A DNA stretch of 64,000 bases from a virus (Duplodnaviria; Caudoviricetes). This document shows positions 19,926 through 45,756 of this stretch, piece by piece; position 1 is the stretch's first letter; every line of letters begins with the position of its first letter. The DNA is taken from IMG/VR virus record IMGVR_UViG_3300031998_000039, positions 34,756-98,755 of that record; one strand, 5' to 3'. Position numbers and translations under genes: made by a program. Under the pieces are notes generated by a model that saw only the letters and a list, made by a program, of their open reading frames with translations, was not told the origin of the DNA and did not search any database.

Positions 19926-19993
19926 TGGACGGAAGAGGAGTCGAACCTCTAACTACTTGACACAAGTTGTTCTTCCAATTGAACTATCCGCCC
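19926..19993 (-). ncRNA. tRNA-like RNA with G3.U70/A73 and truncated anticodon arm
   Basis: GGGCGGA/TCCGTCC+A; D arm GTTC/GAAC; ACTTG-TGT-CAAGT; T arm AGAGG-TTCGACT-CCTCT; 68 nt. Confidence 0.8.
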
Positions 19994-20040
19994 TACCAAA
20001 ACATGGCAAGAAAAGTTTTTGCTTTTACATATTTAGGGGA

Positions 20041-20114
20041 CGATCATGACGGGACTTGAACCCGTGACCTCCAACGTGACAGACTGGCGTTCTAACCAAC
20101 TGAACTACATGACC
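20041..20114 (-). tRNA. tRNA-Asp(GTC)
   Basis: Cloverleaf GGTCATG/CATGATC+G, loop CT-GTC-AC. Confidence 0.92.
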
Positions 20115-20117
20115 AAA

Positions 20118-20190
20118 CGGCTCCAGCAGGACTTGAACCTACGACACCCTGATTAACAGTCAGATGCTCTACCAACTGAGCTATGGAGCC
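20118..20190 (-). tRNA. tRNA-Asn(GTT)
   Basis: Cloverleaf GGCTCCA/TGGAGCC+G, loop CT-GTT-AA. Confidence 0.94.
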
Positions 20191-20257
20191 ATATCTGCTT
20201 CTAACCTTTAATAGGATTAAAAGCAGATTTTAAGAAAGCACATGATATGAAAAATAC

Positions 20258-20328
20258 AGCCTTCAGACGGATTCGAACCGCCATAGCTTGATTACAGGTC
20301 AAGAGTACTACCGTTGTACGATGAAGGC
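20258..20328 (-). tRNA. tRNA-Thr(TGT) with C33
   Basis: GCCTTCA/TGAAGGC+T; CTTGA-CCTGTAA-TCAAG; T loop TTCGAAT. Confidence 0.8.
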
Positions 20329-20381
20329 TTGACCATTACTGGTCATATATCAAAAGAGGTTTCAAATGGGGTATCACGTAA

Positions 20382-20453
20382 TTGCAGAAGCGGGATTCGA
20401 ACCCGCGTCTCAGCCTTATGAGGGCTGCGAGGCATCCACTCCTCTATTCTGCG
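20382..20453 (-). tRNA. tRNA-Met(CAT), initiator-like
   Basis: C1xA72 mismatch, A11-U24, loop CT-CAT-AA. Confidence 0.85.
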
Positions 20454-40842: not shown

Positions 40843-42288
40843 TTATATTCCTCTGTGATCGTTTACAATCGTGCAAAAACCTAATTCAATCCATCTATTC
40901 CACACACTATCCCATTGATATAAAATACATTTTGCATTATCATCATTACGTGTTTTATCAATAAATGCTACAACATATAATTTTGCTTTATCAAGTGTTA
41001 AATAAGTTGTAACTTTATCTTTAATTTTGTATGGTTTACAATCATATTTTTCGCCAGTATATTCATCTTGCCATAACTTTCGTAGCATGATATGTTCACT
41101 GACTACTTCCTTAATCTGTTTTGAATTACTTAAACATCCTGCGTCAAGATATCTTTGGTTGGTTGTATAAAGGGCAAGCTGGAACGTACAGATTAAGCTG
41201 AAGTTTTCTTTTGCAACCAAGTTAAACACTCGCCTACTGCCCATTAACAACTCTTGCCACATTTTATCGGTCATACTGTCATCTGCTTTATACGTATCCC
41301 AACAGAACACCTTGACTCCGTATTTTCTATTCAGACGTTTCATTTCTCGAAGCACAATGCTTGAATTATTATCAAACAGTTTAACAAAAAACATCTTTTC
41401 TCCATATTTTTCATTAGCTATCTTTTGTGCTTCTTTAATTTTTCCCATTTCTTTATCTGTCCAATGTCCTTGCTTTAATTTTTTACGGATTACATCAAAG
41501 CAGTTCATTTCTTCTGTAAGAACATGAGCAATCAGCAAGTGTTTGTAAGCGGTAACCTGCATTTCGTTTGATATTACCGCAGCCATTCCGCCATTTTGCA
41601 CAACCGCAAGCAAGATGCGGAATACAAATGATGTTTTACCAGCCCCGGAATGTCCAGTAACCAATGTAATATCACCCTTTGGAAGTCCAAGCGTTGTATA
41701 GTTTAGCAGAGGAAATGCCTTTGCATAACTAACGCCAACCGCTTCGCCACGATTGTAACTGTCAAGATCAGCGTCTGTTATAATCAGATTACTGCTTTCG
41801 ACTTCACGATTATTTACTAATGAAGATGATGTATTGATATTATCAAACAACAGATACATATCTTCAGATGATAACTTCTTTAATGCTGACACATTTTCAA
41901 ACGTCTTGTCATATTTTTCACATACATTAACAAGATAATTTGCTTTGTTAATCTGGTCAAAATAAGATGTAACATTTTCTTCAGACGTTAAATTAGTAAG
42001 CTGTTCAATTTCTTTCCAGCCACCATAATCGTCATATCTTTTTTTAATCTCTGGTCTTGTAGACAGATAATTATCTACGGATAGATTATCAAATGAGTTC
42101 AATCCTTGCTCTCGCAACGCTTTACCTAACAAATAATAAAACTTTGCATCAGTTGTAATTAATGTATGCTCATTGATATCCTTGTAATCGTCATATAAAG
42201 ACGGGTTTTTCCATAAGCAGAAAACAAAACTTGCTTCAAGCCTGTCCCTGTCTTTATTGATTTCTTGAATAGTTTTTTCGACATCCAT
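40843..42288 (-). CDS. dnaB: Replicative DnaB-like helicase
   Basis: Walker A GHSGAGKTS, SNEM, WDTYK, TFQL, DKTRN. Confidence 0.88.
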   Translation of the reverse strand: MDVEKTIQEINKDRDRLEASFVFCLWKNPSLYDDYKDINEHTLITTDAKFYYLLGKALREQGLNSFDNLSVDNYLSTRPEIKKRYDDYGGWKEIEQLTNLTSEENVTSYFDQINKANYLVNVCEKYDKTFENVSALKKLSSEDMYLLFDNINTSSSLVNNREVESSNLIITDADLDSYNRGEAVGVSYAKAFPLLNYTTLGLPKGDITLVTGHSGAGKTSFVFRILLAVVQNGGMAAVISNEMQVTAYKHLLIAHVLTEEMNCFDVIRKKLKQGHWTDKEMGKIKEAQKIANEKYGEKMFFVKLFDNNSSIVLREMKRLNRKYGVKVFCWDTYKADDSMTDKMWQELLMGSRRVFNLVAKENFSLICTFQLALYTTNQRYLDAGCLSNSKQIKEVVSEHIMLRKLWQDEYTGEKYDCKPYKIKDKVTTYLTLDKAKLYVVAFIDKTRNDDNAKCILYQWDSVWNRWIELGFCTIVNDHRGI

Positions 42289-42322
42289 TAGAAATTAGCG
42301 CAAAAGATTTTGATTTTTTAAA

Positions 42323-43564
42323 TCAAATAAGGCGCGTAAGCCTCCTTTCTGTTATATAATCTGTTTGATGCCCAATATATGATATTTTAGATGGAACTAT
42401 TTCAAGTGTATTGCCATCCAAAGTTTTTAGAACAAAACTACCTTTTAATCGACGTCCATGAACATACCATTCCTTATTTTGTGCCTTAACTTTATCATAA
42501 AGTCTAAACCCTTTAACTTTATAAGGACACTGATTACGTTTGCGATATGCACCTTTACCAATGGTAAACTTATGTATTTGGCGGTTGTGGCAACGTACTT
42601 TTTTTTGATAATATACTATATTATCAGATTTTGCAAAAGGATGACCACTTATACACCTTGCATCTATATGATGAGCTTTAGGAAGTTTACTCGTTATACG
42701 AATAAATTTAGTAATGTATCCATAAGTTAAATTTACATTTGGATATTGTAATTTAATTTTATTGTAAAATGCCCATCTCATTATTCCCATAAATGTGGCA
42801 TCTGCAAATCTCATTCCTCGCTTTATTTCTTTAGGAAGTTTTGTCTCCCCACTATGATAACCATTATGACAAGTTTTGCATAACGTAATTAAGTTATTTG
42901 GTGCATTTCCGCCTATTTGTCTTGATTCAATATGATGTACATTAAGAATTTTATCTTTCGACTTTCCTTTGCAACATTGACAAGTATAATTATCACGAGA
43001 CAACACATATTCTCTTATATTCCAAAAACCAAATTGTTCACCTTGCTGATACTCAACTCCTTGTATATCAGAGTTCTTGATCTTTTGGATATCAAAAGCA
43101 GCTACTTCTGCTATGATTTTAGCTATTGGGAGTATCTCGTTTACCTTACGTATGGCTGTTAGATGTGTATCTATCTTCTGTTGTACAGAAGGAGCCAGCC
43201 ATCCATCTTTGCGGTGACGGTTATCGAACCGTGGCTTACGGTGTCTTGTTTTACGGTTACGCCTTGCAGACCTCATCTCCCTGCGGGCTGAAAGCAGTTT
43301 TGTAATGTCACTGCGGAGTTCAACCTCAGACTCATATAAAACCTTAGATTCTGTAGTAGCAGATATGCCGATGTGTTTTGAACCTGCATCTACTCCAAGT
43401 GATACACACTGGACTTCACGAGTTGATGTTGTATATGATAATTGTATGACAAATGGACAACGTTTTACTACTTTGGCTTTGCCGAATTTAAGCATTTGGC
43501 GGACCTTCCCGTACCGCTCTGTCGGCATGAGTGGTTGTCCGTTTATATCTAACACATATACCAT
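42323..43564 (-). CDS. iscB: RNA-guided endonuclease IscB
   Basis: PLMP N-terminus, RuvC-I LGVDAG, Arg-rich bridge helix, HNH (CQCC..VHHI..NLITLCKTCH), RuvC-III HHIDA. Confidence 0.95.
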   Translation of the reverse strand: MVYVLDINGQPLMPTERYGKVRQMLKFGKAKVVKRCPFVIQLSYTTSTREVQCVSLGVDAGSKHIGISATTESKVLYESEVELRSDITKLLSARREMRSARRNRKTRHRKPRFDNRHRKDGWLAPSVQQKIDTHLTAIRKVNEILPIAKIIAEVAAFDIQKIKNSDIQGVEYQQGEQFGFWNIREYVLSRDNYTCQCCKGKSKDKILNVHHIESRQIGGNAPNNLITLCKTCHNGYHSGETKLPKEIKRGMRFADATFMGIMRWAFYNKIKLQYPNVNLTYGYITKFIRITSKLPKAHHIDARCISGHPFAKSDNIVYYQKKVRCHNRQIHKFTIGKGAYRKRNQCPYKVKGFRLYDKVKAQNKEWYVHGRRLKGSFVLKTLDGNTLEIVPSKISYIGHQTDYITERRLTRLI

Positions 43565-43574
43565 TAGGCGGCAC

Positions 43575-43865
43575 CTCCTTCTGTAAAGGTTGATAAGCTT
43601 TATGCTGTAAGCCGGCGCTTATCTGACCGTTATGCAGCCTTCGCCAATGTTATTCAGAGGTTTATTTAACGATAGCACTGTTTCTACCCATCAAAACTGT
43701 TTAACTACCGTCCGCAGTGCATAGAGTTAGGCTGTACGCCCTATGATGCCTATTTATGGACAAATATAATCCACATTCTCTGTTAACGTAGCCTTTTAAA
43801 AAGGCTTAGGCTAGTCAATAAAGACTTTTACAAATCTCCGCTTCTATAAGTGGTGGGTTATTGAC
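43575..43865 (-). ncRNA. omegaRNA (HEARO-like) scaffold
   Basis: GTCAATAA/TTATTGAC closing stem, GACTAGCCTAAG, CTACGTT and AACATTGGCGAAG motifs directly upstream of iscB. Confidence 0.85.
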
Positions 43866-44530
43866 TAAAATAAATCCCCCATAATATCTTGCATAACATC
43901 ATTAAGATTATTTCTGCCATCAGCAGTTTGCTCTGAAGAAAAGTTATTAATGTCATCTTCTTGAATTGTACTGGTATTTCTCTGCGCTTCTTGAATTGCC
44001 TTTTGTTTCCTTGCAAACTGCTTCAATCCATCATTCAAATGATCGCGAATGATAGCGCATATATATTTGATCTTGCCGACTTCTGATGAAAAATCTTTTC
44101 TTAATGCATATTCAACCATATCATCGCAGAAACGCATTGTTTCAAGTATTACTTCGTAAGAATAATTATTGGTTGTATGCCATTGTCCCAACAAACCATA
44201 GAAAAACTTTGGCATTTTTGCATTAGTAGGATATTCCAACCAGTCAAACATATGTTGAACACACTCTTTATATGCAAGACTTTCAGCTTCATTCAGCTTC
44301 TTTTTAACTGTCCGCTTTGTTTTTTCTGCCATGCGTTTCAACTCCTTTTGTTTACGATAATACTTTGCATTGGCTTGTTTCCGTTTCAGCTTGTGGTAGG
44401 ATTCTTTAGATGAGTAATATTTACGATTCGGTGCAAGCCATGCAGTATCTTTGTCAACATATTCCTTGATATCTATAGCATATACCTGCTGCACCCACCT
44501 CACCCTTTCAAAACAAGTTGATATAAACAT
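43865..44530 (-). CDS. Hypothetical replication protein (helicase-loader position)
   Basis: Originally coupled to the helicase gene; KIKYICAII motif. Confidence 0.55.
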   Translation of the reverse strand: MFISTCFERVRWVQQVYAIDIKEYVDKDTAWLAPNRKYYSSKESYHKLKRKQANAKYYRKQKELKRMAEKTKRTVKKKLNEAESLAYKECVQHMFDWLEYPTNAKMPKFFYGLLGQWHTTNNYSYEVILETMRFCDDMVEYALRKDFSSEVGKIKYICAIIRDHLNDGLKQFARKQKAIQEAQRNTSTIQEDDINNFSSEQTADGRNNLNDVMQDIMGDLF

Positions 44531-44628: not shown

Positions 44629-45756
44629 TTATTTGAACACTTCTCTAATCTTAATTAATGTTGCGATAGGCATTTCGGGATCTGACAACTTTGTTCCGTT
44701 AGCCAGTGCCTTAACCTTTGTCTTCTGTTCAGCAGTTGCACCTGTAAACTTCTGCTGAATCTCAGCTAAAATGTCTTCACGAGATTCTTCAGCTTCAGCA
44801 TTCGCTTTGTCTTCTTTAATCTGCTCTGAAGCGGCTTTAGCCTTTTCTTCCTTTGCCTTTTCCTTTACAACCTGAGCTTTTTTGGCATCCTCAAGTTTTA
44901 CACCATCCTTAGATTGTTCCTTAAGGATAGCATCCTCAACAGCTTTAATAAACTCATCCGCATCAAACGGAATCTGATCGATAATGTCAGCAAATCTTGA
45001 CTTGCTATCTACTGAATAAGTATCATCACGGAAGTTGATTACACGACTCTCGCCGGAAACAACATTCTTTGAGATTGTATTTCCATTGATATCTTTCTTA
45101 CCAGTCTCACGCTTAACAATATTTCTGTCAATGTAAGCCATGCCAACGATATCCATCTTCTGCTTAATTGCGTTGAAATATCTCTGAGTTGTGCTTGCAG
45201 TAAGCATTGTGTATGACTCTTCTGTCATTACATCAGTAATATCCGTTCTCTTAATATGAGCAATGATAAATACTGAAACGCCAACCTCTTTTAACTTCCA
45301 AAAGCTGTCAAGCATAAGGTCAATCGCCTTGTCAAGACCTTTGCCGAAACCCCCAAACGCTGAATTGATAGTATCAATCAGTGGTTTCTGCTGAGTTCTT
45401 AACTTCTGGTTCCACATCTTAACCGTCTGCTTTTCAGCCAAATCACAAAGCTGATCGAATGTGTCGATGACAACAACCTTTAAGTCAGGATAATCAGTAA
45501 ACTTATTTTCTGCAATATCATCAATGACTTCCATATACTTTGCCCAAGTATCGCACTTTTCAGACACGATACCTGAGATTGCCTTGTGTCCATCTTCCTT
45601 ACCGATATCCAGTGAAAGATAGCCTTCGTCACCAACTAACTTCTGGCAAATCTGCTTTGCAATAGTTGACTTGCCAATACCAGCTTCACCAAGTAAACAA
45701 ATGTTATAGCTTAATGGATTCAGATCAATCTGAACTTTTTTACCAAACTTTCCCAT
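44629..45756 (-). CDS. AAA_24/Sak4-like ATPase (single-strand annealing)
   Basis: GEAGIGKST, VVIDT, FGKG, IAH, KSRF. Confidence 0.8.
   Translation of the reverse strand: MGKFGKKVQIDLNPLSYNICLLGEAGIGKSTIAKQICQKLVGDEGYLSLDIGKEDGHKAISGIVSEKCDTWAKYMEVIDDIAENKFTDYPDLKVVVIDTFDQLCDLAEKQTVKMWNQKLRTQQKPLIDTINSAFGGFGKGLDKAIDLMLDSFWKLKEVGVSVFIIAHIKRTDITDVMTEESYTMLTASTTQRYFNAIKQKMDIVGMAYIDRNIVKRETGKKDINGNTISKNVVSGESRVINFRDDTYSVDSKSRFADIIDQIPFDADEFIKAVEDAILKEQSKDGVKLEDAKKAQVVKEKAKEEKAKAASEQIKEDKANAEAEESREDILAEIQQKFTGATAEQKTKVKALANGTKLSDPEMPIATLIKIREVFK

Follow-up and report, generated by a model that had tools for sequence, protein, structure and literature searches.

An IscB element inserted at a stop/start overlap upstream of the replicative helicase gene of a bovine gut phage

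The IscB locus, its protein and its RNA

We analysed a 64,000-nucleotide stretch of viral DNA (Duplodnaviria; Caudoviricetes; hereafter the window), which corresponds to bases 34756-98755 of the 98.7-kb linear IMG/VR virus record IMGVR_UViG_3300031998_000039 (CheckV completeness 64%) and contains an IscB element located between a DnaD/DnaB_2-like gene and the gene for a DnaB-like replicative helicase. The whole element, non-autonomous and of the ISC / IS200-IS605 type, measures 1,577 bases (42289..43865, minus strand), its limits being given by alleles of related phages that lack it (L025, L028 and L002) together with its conserved ends. It is composed of an omegaRNA scaffold, a gene for an IscB protein of 413 amino acids and a 34-base tail, and occurs as a single copy in the 98.7-kb record. 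All genes around it are encoded on the minus strand, in the order Sak4-like gene, DnaD/DnaB_2-like gene, a 301-base untranslated stretch, iscB, 34 bases, DnaB-like helicase gene and primase gene. The upstream gene (43865..44530, minus strand) codes for a DnaD/DnaB_2-like protein of 221 amino acids, YorH-like in relatives and with PF26927 detected in the L028 orthologue; its TAG stop codon (43867-43865, minus strand) owes its last base to the first base of the element. The downstream gene (40843..42288, minus strand) codes for a helicase of 481 amino acids (Pfam DnaB_C, phrog_19) whose ATG occupies positions 42288-42286.

The iscB gene (42323..43564, minus strand) has its own GGAGG ribosome-binding site in front. 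Its product contains the Pfam domains RRXRR (PF14239, 1e-66, residues 2-175) and HNH (PF01844, 2e-07, residues 195-238), the latter inserted in RuvC, as well as a PLMP motif at residue 11 and an arginine-rich stretch, the bridge helix, from residue 101. IscB chains of known structure in the PDB (7UTN, 7XHT and 11HR) match it at E values of 4e-46 to 2e-44 in two stretches, the best covering residues 105-340 and the one printed also covering residues 1-112. In the split RuvC, D59, E153 and H299/D301 align with the GIDPG, LELN and HYLDA positions of 11HR, and H210/H211 and the downstream N...H of the HNH domain are conserved. Judging from these alignments, the 413-codon open reading frame (ORF) is an IscB with all catalytic residues intact. 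It shares with OgeuIscB and the related solved IscB-omegaRNA complexes both the catalytic residues and the domain order PLMP, RuvC-I, bridge helix, RuvC-II, HNH and RuvC-III, although it is about 80 residues shorter (413 versus 495-496). An exact protein look-up found no record of the identical protein. Three close relatives (P0131, P0132 and P0231) bear the Joint Genome Institute (JGI) name ‘N6-L-threonylcarbamoyladenine synthase’, which looks like a mis-annotation.

The omegaRNA scaffold (HEARO RNA, RF02033; 43629..43865, minus strand) is recognized by Rfam over the full model (1-211) with 122 bits and an E value of 5e-26, the gathering score of the family being 83 bits. Position 1 of the model coincides with G43865, the third base of the upstream stop codon TAG, and the match ends 64 bases short of the IscB ATG on the same strand. 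In an alignment of 13 sequences, 36 of the 59 predicted pairs present double changes, including GC-to-AU switches found only in the window copy, and the aligned sequences thus indicate that the omegaRNA keeps its helices by compensatory changes. Directly 5' of model position 1 lie the final 16 bases of the DnaD-like gene (43866..43881, minus strand), which constitute the predicted guide if its length is the 16 bases that we assumed from other IscBs. This sequence, unique in the window, contains the former Shine-Dalgarno motif of the helicase gene (GGGGGA). A guide in the 5' flank had been proposed in the original prediction, and the position of the flank, adjoining HEARO position 1 at 43865, agrees with the published layout in which IscB takes its guide from beyond the transposon, 5' of the scaffold (Meers 2023, 10.1101/2023.03.14.532601). 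A variant of this organization occurs in a 94-kb viral contig (L008), where tandem HEARO scaffolds (2304-2538 and 2749-2957) precede one iscB and may represent a stacked element or one with an orphan guide RNA.

Insertion point, empty alleles and target-adjacent motif

Deletion of 42289-43865 in silico joins the two flanking genes as ...TTATTTTA followed immediately by ATGGAT, which creates a TAATG stop/start overlap. The original prediction had placed the IscB/omegaRNA element to the base at this overlap, and its placement holds: HEARO starts at G43865 and the element stops right before the helicase ATG. It had further stated that neither protein was altered by the insertion. This is true of both flanking protein sequences, the G of the scaffold making a new TAG, but the helicase gene has been parted from its Shine-Dalgarno motif. 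A TA dinucleotide is present at both ends, so that the sequence alone permits a shift of the boundaries by 2 bases. We rejected the shifted boundaries, with an element starting TAGTCAAT, as the flanks of relatives share no TA before GTCAAT, and preferred 42289-43865 because the GTCAAT terminus is conserved in the family. The empty alleles contain no duplicated bases beyond the ambiguous TA, and the site is polymorphic among related phages.

These empty alleles, which the original prediction had expected in relatives, come from five distinct phage contigs without the element, collected via a helicase 73-82% identical to that of the window, and two of them (L025 and L028) have the TAATG overlap. 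L028 (helicase 80% identical) maintains the synteny, with AAA_24, the YorH-like gene and the helicase gene in the same order, and reads ...ATTTATA immediately followed by ATGGAC, placing ATGGA at the position of the predicted target-adjacent motif (TAM; 42284..42288, minus strand), the first three bases of which are the helicase start codon. L025 (74%) reads ...TTGTTCTA followed by ATGAAT, hence ATGAA at the same position. In L002/L026 (73%) the two genes are joined by TGATG, and in L029/L030 (82%) they overlap by 7 bases. The guide followed by ATGGA had been equated with the empty allele of related phages. This view stands only in part: empty junctions do exist, and one of them has ATGGA, but the guide matches none perfectly. 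L025 comes closest, with 2 mismatches located 3 and 6 bases from the TAM, while L028 misses one codon and L002 has 3 mismatches and ATGAC at the TAM position.

The stretch is present in two runs from one sample of a bovine gut metagenome; no RNA dataset was found among the listed runs that contain it. The bovine gut contigs span both junctions of the occupied allele, and no joint skipping the element was seen in them, a survey of contigs that is silent on rare empty alleles. The only other contig with an identical helicase, a Logan contig from a 2019 run, possibly of the source sample itself, carries a partial gene that stops 34 bases upstream, which corresponds to the occupied arrangement. 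A scan of metagenomes with the helicase returned only three loci, each of them an empty allele or partial. Searches of the phage collection yielded no megablast match for the 4.9-kb region and, with distant blastn of the element, only short matches to the HNH region in Clostridium phages. In the bovine gut contigs (runs X1 and X2), several short sequences resemble the 5' part of iscB with about 90% identity (window positions 43086-43619), and the assembly of the phage is interrupted within the gene. The gut community therefore harbours related IscB copies side by side.

The TAM could be derived from comparison with related elements. Related IscB proteins of 53-75% identity came from 22 viral and 29 bacterial loci; in most of them the scaffold begins with GTCAA(T/C) and the element is followed by ATG and then A or G. 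This ATG mostly opens an ORF, with a Shine-Dalgarno motif in the 5' flank, and the approximately 40 relatives examined are as a rule inserted at start codons. Pairs of copies from the same species or genus (L045/L046 and L054/L059) set the element limits without assuming ATG, and their similarity begins at GTCAA and stops after ATGAA. The closest IscB family, with 86-88% protein identity, comprises about 36 protein-database clusters, mostly on short contigs, and corresponds to a multicopy element of rumen bacteria. This element is 1,588 bases long, with copies about 97% identical to one another. At the four independent sites that we fetched (L061, L062/L063, L064 and L065), it starts with GTCAAT and ends with ...GCGCTAATTTAGG. 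The next five bases are ATGGA, beyond which the flanks differ from site to site, and their ATG is the start of the called downstream gene at three of these four sites. In the literature, ISC transposons have a 5'-GTCA end, an N|ATGA target and no target duplication (Kapitonov, Makarova and Koonin 2016, PMC4810608), and the TAM of GstIscB is TTCAT located 5' of the left end, that is, ATGAA in IscB orientation, with the scaffold derived from the right end (10.1101/2023.03.14.532601). The motif encoded by the transposon differs from this TAM at positions 3 and 5 (10.1101/2023.03.14.532601), consistent with TTGAC, the reverse complement of GTCAA. The predicted TAM ATGGA, already put forward in the original prediction, is thus well supported by comparison, as it is present after each of the four independent insertions fetched for the closest relatives and accords with the published target and TAM.

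The notion that a TAM including a start codon is special to this phage, by contrast, has to be abandoned, since an ATG-containing target was already known for the transposon family and start-codon landing is common in relatives. The window contains 244 ATGGA sites, 12 of which are ORF starts. The surplus of start-codon landings reflects either the survival of such insertions or an added preference, neither being unique to this phage. In two relatives (L005 and L048), a long ORF upstream (261 and 445 codons, respectively) likewise ends in a TAG whose G is the first base of the element; therefore, landing on TAATG overlaps recurs in the family. We also considered homing aimed at helicase genes, and rejected it because related elements precede unrelated genes (integrase, SH3 lysin, 3D-domain protein). 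This variety of downstream genes would fit transposition into ATGR sites rather than site-specific helicase homing. Other viral insertions include two IscB elements at different sites of one 148.7-kb contig (L017 and L019) and an element inside a tRNA gene cluster in phage contigs of 207 and 236 kb (L012/L013).

Element ends, base composition and helicase translation

The 3' tail of the element in IscB orientation (42289..42322, minus strand) is its left end as defined by the transposase, with a predicted AT-only hairpin in subterminal position and a GCGCTAATTT terminus, whereas the hairpin of the right end is part of the omegaRNA. Although the start GTCAAT and the end ...GCGCTAATTT-NNN are common to the window element and to the 97%-identical bacterial copies, the final 100 alignment columns against these closest relatives are only 48% identical. 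The terminus and the outer GCGC stem have been kept, the inner GC-rich hairpin has been replaced by an AT-only hairpin of 8 bp, and a second hairpin, which in relatives lies over the IscB stop, is missing from the window copy. The predicted DNA fold of the left end accordingly places the 8-bp AT hairpin inside the GCGC outer stem, with a z score of only -1.4 and a sequence unlike that of relatives.

This divergence is accompanied by a marked shift in base composition. The GC content of the element is 36.9%, as compared with 48% in relatives and 34% in the phage, and third-position GC in iscB has decreased from about 50% in relatives to 25%. At a dS (synonymous divergence) of about 0.95 from the closest relatives, the ratio of nonsynonymous to synonymous divergence (dN/dS) is 0.07, so that IscB is under strong purifying selection. 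The compositional shift indicates that the element has resided for a long time in AT-rich genomes, with its reading frame kept intact. Selection and composition together suggest that such elements persist for long periods in AT-rich, phage-like genomes and are not transient accidents.

The insertion has also modified the context in which the helicase is translated. In the empty alleles, the final part of the upstream gene contains GGGGGA or GGGAGA 9-12 bases ahead of the helicase ATG; in the window, the GGGGGA Shine-Dalgarno motif is now in the guide, 1.58 kb upstream of the helicase gene. The 22 bases that precede this ATG in the window (42289-42310) are devoid of such a motif, whereas it is present in 57 of the 73 long ORFs of the window. 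One way in which the helicase could possibly be translated is re-initiation after the IscB stop, 34 bases upstream. A ribosome-binding site hidden in the 3' tail and brought near the ATG by folding was also considered, and rejected because the fold was no better than that of shuffled sequence.

Probable homing at the uninterrupted junction and its alternatives

We regard as probable, with good confidence, that this is a non-autonomous IscB element placed by a transposase, which takes its guide from the end of the DnaD-like gene and homes at the uninterrupted junction. We infer that a Y1 transposase supplied in trans set the element directly 5' of ATGGA, the family target, which in this compact phage genome would have coincided by chance with the start codon of the helicase gene in a TAATG overlap; the insertion would have survived because neither flanking protein changed. 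The operon transcript through the DnaD-like gene would then fuse the last bases of that gene to the scaffold, generating the guide of the omegaRNA. Loaded with this RNA, IscB would cut phage genomes that have ATGGA right after the guide sequence, as at the uninterrupted junction, but would spare the occupied site, where GTCAA comes next. As guide and TAM are found together only at the uninterrupted junction, the nuclease would act on genomes that lack or have lost the element. Repair from an occupied genome would restore or spread it (restorative or non-restorative homing), perhaps aided by the Sak4-like single-strand annealing protein (phrog_124, AAA_24) encoded at 44629-45756 on the minus strand, two genes upstream of the element. 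In a phage, by analogy with the systems discussed below, this mechanism would plausibly amount to homing between co-infecting genomes. The annealing protein is a phage-encoded recombination function that could serve the repair of an IscB cut.

Several observations weigh against this interpretation. The original prediction had noted the lack of tnpA, and a search for the Y1 transposase domain (PF01797) was indeed negative in the 98.7-kb record, which is 64% complete. Given the differing inner hairpin, mobilisation by the transposase of the bacterial copies is uncertain. An exact search of the viral contig collection with the reconstructed 20-base junction gave no match, and an empty allele matching the guide perfectly was found neither among the relatives sampled nor in that collection. 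The insertion itself is confined to this phage and the Logan contig and occurs in none of the five distinct relatives, with no sign of spread by homing. Finally, the signal of selection spans the whole branch since the divergence from the closest relatives, and part of it may predate entry into the phage.

Some of these observations would favour an inert passenger, the stranded and harmless product of a transposition accident without current activity: the record contains the element only once and yielded no transposase, the hairpin of the left end is divergent, and only one lineage carries the insertion. We nevertheless consider this very unlikely, because a dead element would have gained stop codons and broken pairs, whereas the frame of 413 codons is intact with all catalytic residues and a dN/dS of 0.07, and the RNA helices have been kept by double changes through a large shift in composition. 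The same long-term purifying selection on protein and RNA in a phage-like composition would be expected if IscB were kept mainly as a weapon that destroys co-infecting or superinfecting relatives with an uninterrupted junction, the gain being exclusion rather than copying. A guide made of the end of a conserved replication gene and of the helicase ribosome-binding site, next to a TAM that is a start codon, would constrain escape mutations in such rivals, and an intron endonuclease acting in interference competition between phages is among the cases cited in a review (PMC13565253). However, all relatives sampled diverge from the guide (as detailed above for L025, L028 and L002), and the viral collection contains no perfect target. 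Moreover, a rival that was cut and then recombined with an occupied genome would not be killed but would acquire the element, which makes exclusion hard to tell from homing. Overall, a role mainly in competition seems unlikely to us.

The persistence of the element could alternatively be explained by coupling of expression, the helicase gene relying, in the absence of a ribosome-binding site, on ribosomes that finish IscB, so that imprecise deletion would cripple an essential gene. The bases before the helicase ATG, devoid of the motif present in most long ORFs, and the proximity of the IscB stop agree with this possibility, which is purely inferential. An AGG-type motif exists near the 3' end of about 40% of related elements and not in the others, revealing no consistent design, and the predicted RNA fold of the region does not exceed that of shuffled sequence; we therefore hold this explanation to be extremely improbable. 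A further option concerns the fate of the element after its arrival. With its transposase-binding hairpin replaced and its composition now entirely phage-like, but with strong constraint still acting on IscB and the omegaRNA, the phage copy may no longer be a transposon and may persist purely as an RNA-guided homing or exclusion nuclease against sister phages, a proposal that we find rather doubtful. If true, the nuclease would attack sister phages where translation of their replicative helicase begins, at its ribosome-binding site and start codon, which they could not readily alter.

The interpretation that we prefer, homing by an element placed by a transposase, is close to what is known of other systems. 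Most ISC elements are non-autonomous (Kapitonov 2016, PMC4810608). ISC2-1_HM, ISC2-1_MS and ISC1-1_MA (PMC4810608) resemble the phage element in encoding only IscB, in their 5'-GTCA end and absence of target duplication, and in being inserted directly 5' of an ATGA-like tetramer; they have subterminal hairpins, of which the phage element has predicted counterparts. The phage element differs from this set in the fourth base of its target, G (ATGGA), in its AT-only left-end hairpin, and in being found in a cattle-gut phage instead of a cyanobacterium or proteobacterium. ISGst5 of Geobacillus stearothermophilus, with its nuclease GstIscB, also has the scaffold from the right end, the guide from the outer flank and the same orientation as the upstream gene, and it cuts the empty donor joint and restores the element (Meers et al. 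2023, 10.1101/2023.03.14.532601). ISGst5 resides in a bacterial chromosome with its cognate TnpA and has measured activity, whereas the phage element, known from its sequence, has a predicted TAM that differs by one base and no transposase in view.

Nucleases located beside their own insertion that cut the allele without it, and are copied in by recombination, are exemplified by the IS605 TnpB gene drive in plasmids (Mears et al. 2025, as cited in PMC13565253) and by SegF and SegB of T-even phages. The phage element differs from the former in using IscB instead of TnpB and in residing in a phage instead of a plasmid, and from the Seg enzymes in that these recognize DNA through contacts of the protein itself rather than through a guide RNA. 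The same 2026 review mentions co-infecting phages as a theoretical target of ‘transposon non-restorative homing’ (PMC13565253), and in the literature we found no experiment on IscB homing between co-infecting phages. The landing site, the TAM and the idea of homing are thus already published, and the locus is a clean but ordinary example. Worth recording are the adaptation of its composition to the phage under strong selection, its replaced left-end hairpin and the lost ribosome-binding site of the helicase. As a natural IscB element, it allows guide and TAM to be deduced from the genome sequence and compared with actual empty alleles, and its predicted target comprises the start codon of an essential phage gene and the ribosome-binding site in front of it. 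With a phage recombinase close by, it is also a reasonable test case for IscB homing between co-infecting phages. Elsewhere in the window, the minus strand carries a cluster of five tRNA genes at 19926-20453 (Rfam RF00005, 51-71 bits).

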